NCBI GenBank assembly: GCA_031404135.1 | Contig: JANNHA010000071.1 | Coordinates: 6,198-70,197, forward strand | Direction: 5' to 3' | Source of the DNA: Verrucomicrobiota bacterium | Lineage (GTDB): Bacteria > Verrucomicrobiota > Verrucomicrobiia > Opitutales > Opitutaceae | Length of the DNA: 64,000 nt | Shown here: in pieces, positions 36,024-41,009 of the stretch | How positions within the stretch are numbered: position 1 is the stretch's first letter | How the letters are laid out: each line of letters opens with the position of its first letter | Notes under the pieces: model-generated | Told to the model about the DNA's origin: nothing | Seen by the model: only the letters and a program-made list of their open reading frames with translations | Database searches by the model: none | Program-made: the position numbers and the translations under genes

Positions 36024-36237
36024 GCGTGCGGCCGCTTGGCCAGGTAAGCCTTCCCGGGGTGGAGCAGCTTGACGCAAGATGCTTTCCGGGTGCCACGAAG
36101 GTCGAACCACCCTGTTTGTCATCCCGAGCGCTACGCGAGGGATCCACTTGGAATCGGTAAACCAGCACGTGCGACCTTACCCACTAAGCATGGGCAAAAC
36201 CTCAAACATTCGGGGGTGACTCCTTTTTCATTCTTAA

Positions 36238-36906
36238 TCAGGGAATGGGAATTAGATTGGCCAGTTGTATGTCGAGCTTTTTGAGTCCCGTCAGTATACG
36301 TGACCTAACGGTATTATATATGTCTTTGGGATTTGCAGCGAAGGTAATCTTGTTTCGTGACATGTGAGCAACATTTCCACGCATACCCCCAAATTCGTTC
36401 ATTGCTAAATTCCATTCATCATCGAGATCCTTATTTAATCGAATCGACAAAGGAACCAATAGCCACTTCAGGTTTTCCTCTTTGATGCCATTATTATTAC
36501 TTACAACTTTCAGATACTCCTGTAATGCCATATTTATCCGAGTTTCGACACCGACTTCATTGCACGGTTTCTTCAAATTCTCGGGTCTCTTCCCAAGTTC
36601 GGACCACTCACTAGCACAAATTGCATATAATGAAAACACAACCCTGCCGACAGACTGTTTTTTAGTGTATGCTTCAACTGAAGCTTTAGCGAGCTCTTGG
36701 CAAACCGTTTCAAGGTAATGCTCTATTTCCGCGTGGACTAGAACGATAAACCCGAGAGTCCTGTCCTCCCATTGCGGGTCAGATATGCCCGCAAATGGAT
36801 CATCTAAGTCTAAGGGCAATAAGTGCTTACGCAGAACAACGATTCTTCGCAGGAGTGAATAATATTGAGCGGAAACACTCATAGGTATTTCACTTCCCAA
36901 CCACAA
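36238..36906 (-). CDS. HEPN-domain protein (putative RNase effector)
   Basis: 222 aa in an AT-rich stretch. RGNVAH (Rx4H) about 40 residues from the C terminus. Overlaps the end of the DUF262 gene (alternative start MSVSAQ at 36882). Confidence 0.6.
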   Translation of the reverse strand: MWLGSEIPMSVSAQYYSLLRRIVVLRKHLLPLDLDDPFAGISDPQWEDRTLGFIVLVHAEIEHYLETVCQELAKASVEAYTKKQSVGRVVFSLYAICASEWSELGKRPENLKKPCNEVGVETRINMALQEYLKVVSNNNGIKEENLKWLLVPLSIRLNKDLDDEWNLAMNEFGGMRGNVAHMSRNKITFAANPKDIYNTVRSRILTGLKKLDIQLANLIPIP

Positions 36907-38113
36907 TTGGAGTAATATTCACACCAACGACCTTACTCAATGACGCTGCCCATGCGTGGAATCGATATCTAGTATTTTCCAGACTTTTCGTAGTGCTCTC
37001 AATAGACTCCATGAATCTCGTATCGTTAGTGCAAAGATCTTTATAGGCAGTCACCACAATTTCGGGTGTATCTGTCCACGCTTTATTAACAACTTGATTA
37101 TCAATATACGCAAGTAATACATCAAAGATCGCTCGATTGAAACGTTGCTCAAATTTTTCTCCGGTCCACTTTCCGTAATTATATTCGCTGTCCGAATCAG
37201 CAAAGGCTTTCCGGATCATTTCATCATTTCGGTCAAGCCGGCTAATTAATTCCAAGCAACGAGGTGCGTATGAAGCCCAATTGGCGTTAAGCTCTTTACA
37301 TGTTGAGTCGAGAAACAATTTCATGTTACCGATGTATCGATTCAGAAACAAATTAAATGCTATGTGCCTGATAACGAGCTCAACATCTCTCATTCTGAAA
37401 TCAGGTTTTGTTGAGTGAAGAATTCGTTTTATAGCTTTACTTGCCGTCGAATTTTCATCTGCAAAATCCACGAATGGTCCCGGATGAAGCGCCTGCCTTA
37501 GCTCCTGTGGCGAAAGTGGTTTGCTCCCCATATTCAGACGAATAAATACGTGAAACAATAGTGCCTCGTCCTTCCAATTCTTAATAATCACAGTCCTTAT
37601 TGGCTGGTTATCAAAAGCAGCGATCACGTCTGTGCAGGTCAGATCTTCACGCAGATCACTATAAGTCCTTCCATTTAAATCCTTCCTGATATCTAGGTTC
37701 CTCAAACTGAATACTGGAAAATCGGACGCTCCGTTATTTGATGTAAATTGCAGCAAGCATAGGAGTCTTTGCTTACCATCTAGCACGATGTACTTTCCAC
37801 GAGCATCCATACGCTCCGCCAAAACAATTTGGGGTACCGGTAAACCCAAAATCAATGATTCAATGAATCTACTTTTTCTGTCTAATTCCCACGCATCGCG
37901 TCGCTGAAATTTCGGGTTAAGTTCGATATTTCCCTTACGTAGTTGAGACAGAACGGTCTCAGTGGTCCAATCGGCACCGCCAACAGTGATGCTAGAAAAA
38001 ACTACGTTTCCCGCCAGAGTTATATCGGACTCTTCTTCAGATGTGCCTGTGATTTCTGAGAACTGTTGAGGATCATTCATTGAATGAATTATTAATGGTG
38101 GCTTTTGCGGCAA
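36890..38113 (-). CDS. DUF262 (ParB/Srx-like nuclease/NTPase fold) protein without a recognisable DUF1524/HNH half
   Basis: LNPKFQRRDAWELDRKSRFIESLILGLPVPQIVL and YIVLDGKQRLLCL (FQR / DGQQR motifs). TTG start at 38113 (alternative ATG at 38080). AT-rich. Confidence 0.8.
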   Translation of the reverse strand: MPQKPPLIIHSMNDPQQFSEITGTSEEESDITLAGNVVFSSITVGGADWTTETVLSQLRKGNIELNPKFQRRDAWELDRKSRFIESLILGLPVPQIVLAERMDARGKYIVLDGKQRLLCLLQFTSNNGASDFPVFSLRNLDIRKDLNGRTYSDLREDLTCTDVIAAFDNQPIRTVIIKNWKDEALLFHVFIRLNMGSKPLSPQELRQALHPGPFVDFADENSTASKAIKRILHSTKPDFRMRDVELVIRHIAFNLFLNRYIGNMKLFLDSTCKELNANWASYAPRCLELISRLDRNDEMIRKAFADSDSEYNYGKWTGEKFEQRFNRAIFDVLLAYIDNQVVNKAWTDTPEIVVTAYKDLCTNDTRFMESIESTTKSLENTRYRFHAWAASLSKVVGVNITPIVVGK

Positions 38114-38350
38114 ACAAAGGGGTGTTCATCTGGCTGGGTGCCAAAATGCAATAGGTGGCATCAAGTTGGAAGGCAAATTGTTCGGCCACGCTGAGGTGGA
38201 CTCCGTGACCAGTACCAGGGGATCGAGAGAGTTAGTTATGAGGTTCAGGTATGATTGGGAAGATAAAATAATTTTTAGGGAGGGGTGCAGGGAAGGGAGC
38301 TAGCTCTTTCCCCGCTCCTCCCGTCGCCGTTAGGCGGCATGTTTGGGGCG

Positions 38351-38395
38351 ATCCAAAAGGGCCAAACTTTGCACTTTGCACAAAGACCCTGCGGA
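38351..38395 (+). repeat. Direct repeat flanking hicBA, left copy
   Basis: ATCCAAAAGGGCCAAACTTTGCACTTTGCACAAAGACCCTGCGGA. Compare 39072-39128. Confidence 0.6.
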
Positions 38396-38606
38396 TGGAG
38401 CATATCTGCAGGAGAACTTGGTGCTCCTGACCAACCCGAGAATCAGGATGCTTAAGGACGTCCACCCCCGTACGGCACCGGCCAGGCTCACGTTCGACGT
38501 GTGCGAGCCGACCCAGCCAGGCGTGGAAAACGTCGAATGAGAGGCAGAACTTACAGAGGAAGAAGTCGAGCTTGCCGAGTAACTCTAGGACGATAGCTTT
38601 TTCCCC

Positions 38607-38825
38607 ATGAAGGAAATTATTTTTGAGGTACGCGAGGACGAGGCCGATGGCGGTTTTACCGCTGCGGCGCTCGGTCATGACATTTTTACTGAGGGCGACA
38701 CGATAGCGGAACTACGCGCCAATGTGCGCGGGGCGGTGCAGTGTCACTTTGGCGATGGCGTGCCCGGACCGTTGCCGCAAATGATCCGGCTGCATTTTGT
38801 GCGTGATGAAGTACTAGCGACATGA
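38607..38825 (+). CDS. hicB: HicB-like antitoxin (RNase-H-fold-only type)
   Basis: 72 aa. MKEIIFEVREDEADGGFTAAALGHDIFTEGDTIAELRANV. 4-nt overlap with hicA. Confidence 0.7.
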   Translation: MKEIIFEVREDEADGGFTAAALGHDIFTEGDTIAELRANVRGAVQCHFGDGVPGPLPQMIRLHFVRDEVLAT

Positions 38826-39064
38826 AAATCCCGCGCGACTTGAGCGGCTCCGATCTGGCGAAGGCGTTGCGTACGCTCGATTATGAGCGCGTGAGGCAGG
38901 ACGGCTCACATATCCGACTGACAACCCAGCGCGGCGGCCAGCATCACATCACGGTGCCCAATCACAATCCGATCAAGCTGGGCACGCTGACGGGCATCCT
39001 CAAAGCCATTGCCGCGCACCACAAGCTGAGCATTCAGGAGTTGGTGCAAACCCTCGGCCTGTAA
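38822..39064 (+). CDS. hicA: HicA-family mRNA interferase toxin
   Basis: 80 aa. LSGSDLAKALRTLDYERVRQDGSHIRLT...HHITVPNHNPIKLGTLTGILK (YcfA/HicA pattern with catalytic GSH). Confidence 0.8.
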   Translation: MKIPRDLSGSDLAKALRTLDYERVRQDGSHIRLTTQRGGQHHITVPNHNPIKLGTLTGILKAIAAHHKLSIQELVQTLGL

Positions 39065-39071
39065 CGAAACC

Positions 39072-39128
39072 AATCAAAAGGGGTTAAGTTTTGCACTTTG
39101 CAGAAAGGCCGATCCAGGCTTCTGCGGA
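39072..39128 (+). repeat. Direct repeat flanking hicBA, right copy
   Basis: AATCAAAAGGGGTTAAGTTTTGCACTTTGCAGAAAGGCC...CTGCGGA. Shares the TTTGCACTTTGCA core with 38351-38395. Confidence 0.6.
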
Positions 39129-39383
39129 CAGTGGTTGTGTTTTGGAGCTTGGGGTCGGTGGTTCCACTCAAACCCACCCGGACCCAACCTCATTGGATTG
39201 CCGCAAGGCTAGAACGAGGAAGCGCACGCAAGCGTGGTTCGGGGCGGACACGAACGTTTGGAGGTTATCCCGGTAACGGGATGCTCGTGCAAAACGAGGA
39301 CACGTTGAACCAACCTTCTTACGGCCATGGTTTCAATATGCGATCAACCGCTCCCCTTGATCGGGGAAAGATCATTAACTGGA

Positions 39384-39460
39384 GAGCCGGATGCGGGAAA
39401 TCCGCCAGTCCGGTTCGGAGGGAGGGGTGGAGCAAATCAATGCTCCGTCCCTACCCCTAT
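39384..39460 (+). mobile_element. Group II intron 3' terminus (domain V plus domain VI with bulged branch-point A), ORF-less remnant
   Basis: 39384-39416 GAGCCGGAUGCGGGAAAUCCGCCAGUCCGGUUC matches the domain V consensus: AGC triad, 9-bp lower stem with G-U pairs, a 2-nt CA bulge and a GAAA-type loop. 39419-39460 folds as domain VI with an unpaired A at 39453, 7 nt before ...CUAU. Confidence 0.7.
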
Positions 39461-39557
39461 CAAGCCGGATCGGGATCGCCGGCAAGCAGGCTTCTGCGAA
39501 AATCTGCGCTGATGACGCGTCGCCCGCCTTTTCCTGATTGAACAATCCCTGCCCGTT

Positions 39558-41009
39558 TCACAGCGGCAGGTTGATGCCGGCGAGCGACGTGGCGATGGCG
39601 TTCATGATCGGTTCAGGTGCGACGCCGAGCCAGATGATACCGATAATCAAGAGAACGCAGAGAATCTTGGTCGAGAGGTCGATGGAAAGGGATTCGGGAG
39701 CGGTGCCGTCGGAGACTTTTTCACCGAAGACGCTTTTGCGGACAACTTGGAGGTAATAATAAATGGCGATCGCGGAGTTGATCACAGTGATGATCACGAG
39801 GGCGAGGTGTCCCTTGGCGAAGGCGGCGGAGAGAAGGCCGAACTTGCCGATAAAGCCAACGAACGGAGGGATGCCCGCGAGGCCGAAGACGGCGACGACG
39901 AGCGTCAGGGCTAACAAGGGCGAGCGGCGGTGCAGGCCGGAGAGTTCTTCGATTTCGACGTTGGTGCCGTCTTTGGAGACTTTGCAGATGACGACGAAAC
40001 AGGCGGTGACCATCAGTAGGTATCCAACAATGTAGTACAGCGCGGCGGTGTAACCAGCGGTGTTCATGGCGGTGAAACCGACGACGGCGTAACCGGCGTG
40101 CGCGATGCCGGAGAAACCGAGCAGGCGTTTGAAATCTTTTTGGACGAGCGCGATCAGGTTGCCGTAGCACATCGAGAGGATGGCGAGGCCGCTGAGCAGC
40201 GTGGCGATCGAGTGATTATCCGGGGTGGCGAGCGAAACGAGGCGGACGAGCACGGCGACGGCGCCGACTTTGGGCAGCGAGGCGATGAAGCCGGCGGTTT
40301 CGTTGGAGGCGCCTTGGTAAACGTCGGGGGTCCAGAAGTGGAAGGGGAAGATGGCGAGTTTGTAGTAGAAACCGCAGAACGCCATCGAGAGGCCGACGAT
40401 CACGAGGGGCGTGCCTGCGATGGGAGCGAGCTTGGTGAACATTTCCGGCAGGTGCGTCGAGCCGGTGAGGCCGAACAGGTAGCTAAAACCAAAGAACATG
40501 ATGCCGTTGGCGGCGACGCCGAACATGACGTACTTGATGGCGGATTCCATTTGCACGCGTTGGCCGTCGCGCTCGCGGCGCATGGCGACCATCAGGTAGA
40601 GCGGGAACGACGAAAGTTCGAGGGCGATGATGAGCGAGAGCACTTCGACGCTGCTGACGAGCATTGTGAGGCCGAGTACGCTGAGGGTGAGGAAGAGGTA
40701 GTACTCGGCTTTGGTTTCTTGCCGGATGTCGGGTAGGTTGCCGCTGAGGAGAAGCACGAACAAGTAGCCAGCGCTCATGACGATCTTGAGCCATTGTGAG
40801 AAGGCATCGATGCGGTACGCGCCGTCAAAGAGGACCTTGCTTTCGGGAAGCGAAACGATGCTGGCACCGAGGGTGACAAGGGCGACGAAGATGGCACCGG
40901 CGCGAGCGGCTTTGCCCTGCTTTTCGCCGAGGGCGACGACGAAGAGGCCGAGTGCTCCGGCGAGGAGCACGAGCTCAGGGAAGAAGGCGAGGGCGGAGAA
41001 GGGAGTCAT
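39558..41009 (-). CDS. nuoN: NADH:quinone oxidoreductase-like complex, subunit N
   Basis: 483 aa, 14-TM antiporter-like. LELSSFPLYLMVAM and ESAIKYVMFGVAANGIMFFG, typical of NuoN. Last gene of the operon. Confidence 0.85.
   Translation of the reverse strand: MTPFSALAFFPELVLLAGALGLFVVALGEKQGKAARAGAIFVALVTLGASIVSLPESKVLFDGAYRIDAFSQWLKIVMSAGYLFVLLLSGNLPDIRQETKAEYYLFLTLSVLGLTMLVSSVEVLSLIIALELSSFPLYLMVAMRRERDGQRVQMESAIKYVMFGVAANGIMFFGFSYLFGLTGSTHLPEMFTKLAPIAGTPLVIVGLSMAFCGFYYKLAIFPFHFWTPDVYQGASNETAGFIASLPKVGAVAVLVRLVSLATPDNHSIATLLSGLAILSMCYGNLIALVQKDFKRLLGFSGIAHAGYAVVGFTAMNTAGYTAALYYIVGYLLMVTACFVVICKVSKDGTNVEIEELSGLHRRSPLLALTLVVAVFGLAGIPPFVGFIGKFGLLSAAFAKGHLALVIITVINSAIAIYYYLQVVRKSVFGEKVSDGTAPESLSIDLSTKILCVLLIIGIIWLGVAPEPIMNAIATSLAGINLPL

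Follow-up and report, generated by a model that had tools for sequence, protein, structure and literature searches.

A probable non-functional 3' remnant of a mobile group II intron in a variable islet beside nuoN in a Verrucomicrobiota genome

The window analyzed here is a 64-kb stretch of DNA from a 3.87-Mb, 149-contig Verrucomicrobiota assembly. The element of interest lies in a small, variable accessory islet where the nuo operon ends, directly against the convergent end of nuoN; in each of the four same-genus genomes, synteny breaks off at the nuoN stop codon. The islet encodes a pair of defence proteins (DUF262/GmrSD-N and HEPN), followed by a toxin gene, hicA, and an ORF in front of it that we presume to be hicB from its position (Table 1). 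This 72-aa ORF has no Pfam match at E<=0.01 and may encode a short, divergent HicB-like antitoxin. The element points in the same direction as hicBA, and terminator prediction gives no intrinsic terminator either between the two or after the element.

Table 1. Features of the islet and of the intron-derived element (window coordinates)
Feature	Position	Strand	Basis or remark
DUF262/GmrSD-N and HEPN pair (defence)	36238-38113		Pfam
Dispersed ~38-nt repeat module, second copy, upstream of hicBA	38351-38388	+	Repeat search
72-aa ORF, presumed hicB	38607-38825		Overlaps hicA start by 4 nt; position expected for HicB
hicA toxin gene	38822-39064	+	PF07927 HicA_toxin, E=4e-12
Dispersed ~38-nt repeat module, core TTTGCACTTTGCA	39073-39110	+	Repeat search, family D1
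147-aa ORF, judged spurious	39098-39541	+	No Pfam family; indels in G003 copy
DNA between repeat module and recognizable intron part	39111-39344	+	No profile match; fold; G003 comparison
19-nt patch AUUGCCGCAAGGCUAGAAC, GNRA-capped mini-hairpin	39197-39215	+	blastn match to L086
3' closing segment of DIV: hairpin CUCCCC/GGGGA and linker ...AACUGGA	39345-39383	+	Alignment
Group II intron domain V, 33 nt, GAGCCGGAUGCGGGAAAUCCGCCAGUCCGGUUC	39384-39416	+	RF00029 alignment
DV features: AGC triad, 2-nt bulge, GAAA-containing loop	39384-39416	+	Sequence, RF00029
J5/6 and domain VI; branch-point A 39453; intron 3' end ...CCCCUAU at 39460	39417-39460	+	RF00029, covariation

Repetitive DNA surrounds these genes. 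Two copies of the ~38-nt module (layout GATCCRAAGGGGYCAAAC-TTTGCACTTTGCA-CAAG) flank hicBA as direct repeats 722 nt apart. The 13-mer core of the module occurs seven times in the genome, against ~0.1 expected, and the module is also present on contigs C2, C32, C45, C70 and C124 of G000 (L032-L036). It heads a ~400-nt non-coding mosaic repeat, here termed X, that is restricted to the genus and has at least 11 copies in G000; sub-modules of X (30-50 nt) are dispersed separately, many times, in the genomes G002, G003 and G007. The module and X could represent a REP/MITE-like element or a regulatory site. A fragment of X (X positions 230-295, 88% identical) also occurs at ~36103-36168 (- strand), just past the HEPN gene, on the islet's left margin, and thus repeat pieces both bracket and subdivide the islet. 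Because the 38-nt module is dispersed and unrelated to introns, the copy that follows hicA marks the 5' limit of the element and not the 5' end of an intron.

We also considered X as an intron-derived sister element, given a tail that resembles the upper helix of domain V (DV) and a ...GUCCCUACCUC resembling domain VI (DVI). This was rejected: the Rfam Intron_gpII model (RF00029) has no match to X at E<=1, similarity is limited to a 19-nt hairpin, with a score that 1 of 300 shuffles attained, and the middle parts show none, the fold equals that of shuffled sequences (z=-0.48), and X is a mosaic of short repeats that disperse independently in related genomes. An exact 12-nt direct repeat (CAGGCTTCTGCG, 39115-39126 and 39487-39498) brackets the element together with 27 nt of downstream DNA. 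It could be due to chance (~0.1 expected per 2 kb), or could be a junction or duplication from the arrival of the segment. We do not regard it as a target-site duplication, as it is roughly at chance level and group II mobility makes no duplications.

RF00029 matches the window at 39382-39460 (+ strand) end to end, over all 77 model positions, scoring 54.8 bits where the gathering threshold is 40 (whole-window E=5e-8; E=1.5e-9 in a local scan). This is the only above-threshold match, both in the window and in the whole assembly. The first-pass annotation, made from the sequence alone, had placed a DV at 39384-39416 and a DVI with a bulged A at 39453 that ends at 39460, and had proposed this search; the significant match bears out both coordinates and features. 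The DV has the catalytic triad, the 2-nt bulge and a GNRA-type loop, and the DVI has the bulged branch-point A 7-8 nt from an AY 3' end that is seen in group II introns, here exactly 7 nt before the ...CUAU end at 39460. The upper helix of DV is one nucleotide short, as had been noted at first; this is a family trait, common to multi-copy relatives and to relatives that bear an intron-encoded protein (IEP). The DV is identical to that of one other locus (L109, a member of the panel described below) and to the family consensus. Homology with the copies in G003, G013, G040 and the panel stops exactly at 39460.

The pairings are supported by homologous copies, as proposed. Searching species genomes with an exact 22-nt DV pattern gave more than 120 loci, most of them in Acidobacteriota, Planctomycetota and Verrucomicrobiota. 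From these, 39 relatives with a short DVI were aligned with the window sequence, and RNAalifold recovered both DV and DVI. Since DV was fixed by the search pattern it cannot show covariation (12 of 12 DV pairs are kept in the alignment, which is uninformative for that reason), and DVI is free to vary. Compensatory double changes are found in 7 of the 12 DVI pairs, one of which appears as UA in 12 sequences, GC in 12, CG in 7 and AU in 6, and the UA bulge bearing the branch A is conserved among the 39 relatives. The segment 39384-39460 is a genuine group II intron DV/DVI. A chance resemblance of GC-rich hairpins has the high GC of the region in its favour and nothing beyond; it is hardly credible against 54.8 bits (E=5e-8) over the full model, 85-98% identity to the DV/DVI of bona fide introns with IEPs, and homology that ends precisely at the intron 3' end.

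All of the most similar DV/DVI sequences belong to one type, represented by two copies of a 2.0-kb full-length intron in G013 (for example L018:1077-3073). This intron has a GUGCGA start, a 555-nt DI-DIII, a 448-aa IEP with RVT_1 and GIIM domains, and the 3' end CCUACCUCUAU. At least four copies of the intron, at contig ends, are present in G040. The G013 IEP stops 11 nt short of DV; the full-length copies have their IEP ORF stop within the pre-DV closing segment that is equivalent to 39345-39383. By blastn, the window shares only 39378-39462 with the full-length copies (85-89% identity). Alignment extends this homology back to ~39345, and 39345-39383 can be aligned to the pre-DV segment of the G013-type L109, L129 and L132 and of G040; recognizable homology to the closest intron subfamily thus begins only ~40 nt before DV. 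In G013 itself, one full-length copy (L019, G013:C1:497900-501500, reverse strand) has the intron's first 257 nt repeated in tandem ahead of it, with 98% identity, which suggests a nested or partial re-insertion.

A panel of 41 family DV loci from other genomes, each with at least 700 nt upstream of DV, indicates what such loci commonly look like. An IEP lies directly before DV in 25 of the 41. About nine are complete ORF-less introns, in which the 580-690 nt before DV are collinear with the DI-DIII of full-length copies, and about seven are stubs with homology that sets in 0-130 nt ahead of DV. By sequence comparison, the window element behaves like the panel stubs.

The rest of an intron is absent from the window. 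A nhmmer profile of the G013-type DI-DIII (E<=10, filters off, --max) finds no DI-DIII in the entire 64 kb. In controls, the same profile recovers the degenerate L129 (4e-60), L086 (1e-55) and nine ORF-less metagenome copies (~1e-50), and it detects even the DIII of other subfamilies. A search with the Rfam group II D1-D4 models, which had been suggested at first, was run over 37800-39700 and gave no match; these models reach only 22.5 bits (E=0.86) on a full-length G013 control and are weak for this family, so we gave the result no weight and replaced them with the family-specific profile and its working controls. DI-DIII from a very different, unsampled intron class might escape such sequence profiles, though the element offers no room for them. 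The DI-DIII of the G013-type family span ~450-555 nt. From the hicA stop (39064) to the 19-nt patch (39197) there are ~130 nt, 38 of which are the dispersed repeat, which leaves too little space between hicA or the repeat and the intron part for DI-DIII. There is no GUGYG 5' end in 39065-39383, and DI, which would carry EBS1/2 and the DV receptor, was not found, nor were DII-DIII.

The lack of an IEP ORF, also claimed in the first-pass annotation, holds: no RVT_1 or GIIM domain occurs in the local ORFs (Pfam), and neither tblastn of the family IEP against the window nor comparison of three-frame translations of 39065-39383 with the panel reveals an IEP remnant. DIV is therefore without an intron-encoded RT/maturase. 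The 147-aa ORF runs from the dispersed repeat module through DV/DVI. It belongs to no Pfam family, its frame is broken in the G003 copy by a 2-nt insertion and a 1-nt deletion, and DVI lengths differ among relatives by non-multiples of three, all of which favours the original view that it is merely intron RNA being translated.

Little can be recognized in the DNA just upstream of the closing segment. The 234 nt at 39111-39344 fold like shuffled sequence (z=-0.09; 97 of 200 shuffles are as good). Taken over the full 401 nt, folding is better than in shuffled sequence (z=-3.64), an effect of DV/DVI. The GNRA-capped hairpins reported upstream of DV do exist, but given this fold and the lack of a DI-DIII profile match they do not stand as ribozyme domains. 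Beyond the partial copy in G003 described below, no further copies of 39100-39385 occur in 400 genomes of the order, and a 24-nt conserved stretch of it was not found in metagenomes. From ~39197 onward, 39111-39344 is probably a decayed, non-coding DIV remnant.

This assignment involves the 19-nt patch, which lies at -187 relative to DV in the window and at -189 in L086, a Thermoanaerobaculia MAG. A gapped-pattern search identified nine metagenome contigs that carry the patch 155-185 nt before DV. Each of these (L179-L187), as well as L086, is a complete ORF-less intron: DI-DIII are full, an IEP is lacking, and DIV is non-coding and ~215 nt long. They have a conserved motif ATTGCCGNAAGGCTAGAAC ~187 nt before DV, and their conserved DIV motif is written AUUGCCGNAAGGCUAGAAC. 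The DV region of the window is 94-98% identical to this lineage over 51 nt. The DIV motif common to the window element and the ORF-less lineage hints at a parent that had perhaps already become ORF-less. By eye, the whole DIV of the lineage seemed collinear with 39216-39376; this was discarded, as a profile of that DIV core, built without the patch and DV, has no match there or elsewhere in the window. Elsewhere in the family, the ORF-less L075, L106 and L138+ share a single Bryobacterales chromosome with the IEP-bearing L121 and L138-.

The same-genus genome G003 encodes a 90% identical copy of 39250-39461 only, located between an ORF without identity and a radical-SAM gene, 16 kb from nuoN. 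The two copies are cut at different 5' points, with the G003 copy being shorter, and their similarity stops exactly at the intron 3' end. Thus, the shared unit is bounded by the intron terminus, as for intron-derived copies. Upstream, 39250-39344 is 88% identical to the G003 copy, and DV/DVI (92%) does not differ significantly from this adjoining stretch (88%; Fisher p=0.48). The G003 copy also has a broken DV pair and a deletion at its 3' end. Given that DV/DVI is no better conserved than the adjoining DNA and that a pair is broken, we see no sign of selection.

A search for full-length copies with an RT ORF elsewhere in the genome, as had been recommended, yields none related to the element. 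The sole IEP-bearing intron, on contig C93 (L037:674-2485, - strand), is complete and of another class (RF02001 D1D4-3, 128 bits; RF01998, 46 bits). Its 603-aa product is the only IEP in the genome, at 39% identity. The C93 intron has its own divergent DV/DVI-like end (...GGCUACCCGAU) after the ORF stop, which RF00029 does not match at E<=1; a scan with RF00029 only will therefore undercount introns. We considered a split or trans arrangement of the window element with the C93 intron and rejected it, since that intron, being of another class and having its own DV/DVI, makes such an arrangement unnecessary. Contig C4 (L003:1422-1535, - strand) carries a sub-threshold DV/DVI-like element (RF00029, 25.2 bits, E=0.04) with an alteration at the foot of the DV helix (CCGCC versus AGCC in the family) and a long DVI, which is probably another decayed intron 3' end. 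An element similar to this one is present in G033 (L008).

Overall, ~39197/39345-39460 is most likely the 3' end left over from a mobile G013-family group II intron, with no remaining function. It had been described at first as a truncated or ORF-less intron. Both terms apply, as it is without an ORF and lacks DI-DIII; on the sequence evidence it is 5'-truncated and not a complete ORF-less intron. Homology is confined to one end (~39345-39460), the 3' boundary is exact and other truncated copies exist. An ORF-less intron that only splices should have a complete DI-DVI and a related IEP elsewhere, and neither was found in the window and the genome, respectively. The surviving parts are the end of DIV, an intact DV, and an intact DVI with its branch A and 3' splice boundary, and the lost parts are the IEP gene and domains I-III. 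It is DI-DIII that provide the scaffold, the exon-binding sites and the DV-docking receptors. With no DI-DIII and no ORF the element cannot be a working intron, and from established group II biology we infer that, lacking DI, it would be incapable of ribozyme folding, exon recognition, splicing or movement. The truncation probably arose by aborted reverse transcription of a reverse-spliced intron, which starts at the intron 3' end, or by later deletion, and the remnant would now be drifting neutrally. Two observations count against a dead stub: DV and DVI are perfectly intact, with DV equal to the family consensus, and ~80 nt (39118-39196) have no assigned origin. The intact DV/DVI could reflect a recent insertion, though selection would give the same picture.

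The orphan DIV-DV-DVI might have been domesticated as a structured RNA, for example by forming a stable 3' end that shields hicBA mRNA reading through into it, or by serving as decoy or partner of an intron RNA or protein made elsewhere. The orientation of the element relative to hicBA, with no intrinsic terminator predicted between or after them, would fit this idea, as would the intact DV and DVI, the fold of the 401-nt stretch (z=-3.64, driven by DV/DVI) and the existence of one intact IEP-bearing intron in the genome. We nevertheless consider domestication unlikely, because other genomes of the genus do not share the locus, the one further copy (in G003) is shorter, lies in an unrelated context and carries a disrupted DV pair, and DV/DVI is no better conserved than its surroundings. 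The potential partner on C93 is of a different class (D1D4-3, IEP 39% identical) with its own DV/DVI, and the high-affinity IEP site (DIVa, at the start of DIV) falls in the part that is missing here. That the element is kept for a function, for example as a catalytic module or decoy acting in trans, or as a structure that shields the 3' end of the hicBA transcript, is quite unlikely in turn.

The element might instead be a complete, compact ORF-less intron or ribozyme of ~350-390 nt (39073/39111-39460), with DI-DIII too divergent for sequence tools. Complete ORF-less relatives do exist in the family, and a GNRA-capped hairpin upstream of DV (AUCCCG-GUAA-CGGGAU) is kept in G003 as AUCUUG-GAAA-CGGGAU. 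However, those relatives retain ~580-690 nt before DV that are easily found by the DI-DIII profile, whereas the 273 nt available here must house DIV too, have no GUGYG 5' end (39065-39383) and, in their upstream part, fold no better than shuffles. G003 lacks everything upstream of 39250, and the genome has no related IEP, which leaves this reading very improbable. Scarcely more can be said for an intact intron that was interrupted by insertion of hicBA or of 38389-39064, with the 5' half of the ribozyme now upstream of hicB. The two 38-nt repeat copies that flank hicBA (38351-38388 and 39073-39110) and a GUGCG pentamer at 38502 are compatible with such an event, but the DI-DIII profile has no match in 37500-39600 or anywhere in the window, the Rfam D1-D4 models (weak for this family) have none in 37800-39700, and the flanking repeat is a module dispersed throughout the genome and unrelated to introns; we judge an interrupted intron to be more improbable still. 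Jointly, domestication, a compact ribozyme and an interrupted intron retain a small but appreciable probability next to a dead intron remnant.

Read as a dead remnant, the element can be set beside several known systems. The full-length G013-type introns (with an RT and maturase, En-less IEP) have 85-89% identical DV/DVI, the same 33-nt DV, the ...AACUGGA linker and the CCUACCYCUAU 3' end; unlike them, the window has no GUGCG 5' end, no 555-nt DI-DIII and no 448-aa IEP. Like the complete ORF-less introns (L086, L179-L187 and the Bryobacterales L075, L106 and L138) it has no IEP, and it shares with the L086 lineage the 19-nt DIV patch at the same distance from DV. In contrast to the window element, these introns have a full DI-DIII (~1e-50) and could splice with an IEP provided in trans, and the DIV core of the window is not detectably similar to that of the L086 lineage. 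Group II catalysis needs DI together with DV, and the window element is without DI. In this it differs from HYER and other protein-free group II-derived ribozymes (bioRxiv 10.1101/2024.08.31.610620), with which it has in common that it is ORF-less and derived from group II introns. The closest counterparts are the 5'-truncated intron fragments of bacteria (Zimmerly & Semper 2015, PMC4424553): like these, the element retains only the end of DIV, DV and DVI, is without an IEP and lies outside genes amid mobile or accessory DNA. It also has a differently truncated copy in a related genome, and nothing essential differs. Most bacterial group II intron copies are truncated and found among other mobile DNA (PMC4424553), and the element is thus a further instance of a known and common thing.

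For the annotation of this genome, the 147-aa ORF at 39098-39541 should not be called a gene. The remnant marks the nuoN-distal islet, with its defence pair, hicAB, repeats and stub, as accreted mobile DNA. Biologically the finding is routine, as truncation is the commonest state of bacterial group II intron copies. The parent family has been little studied and, with its 33-nt DV, is widespread in Acidobacteriota, Planctomycetota and Verrucomicrobiota. Bacterial ORF-less introns were called rare in a 2015 review, which cites cyanobacterial examples (PMC4424553). In the 33-nt-DV family ~9 of the 41 sampled DV loci, roughly a fifth, are complete ORF-less introns, and the ORF-less lineage with a conserved non-coding DIV, a by-product of this analysis, may be worth more than the stub itself.
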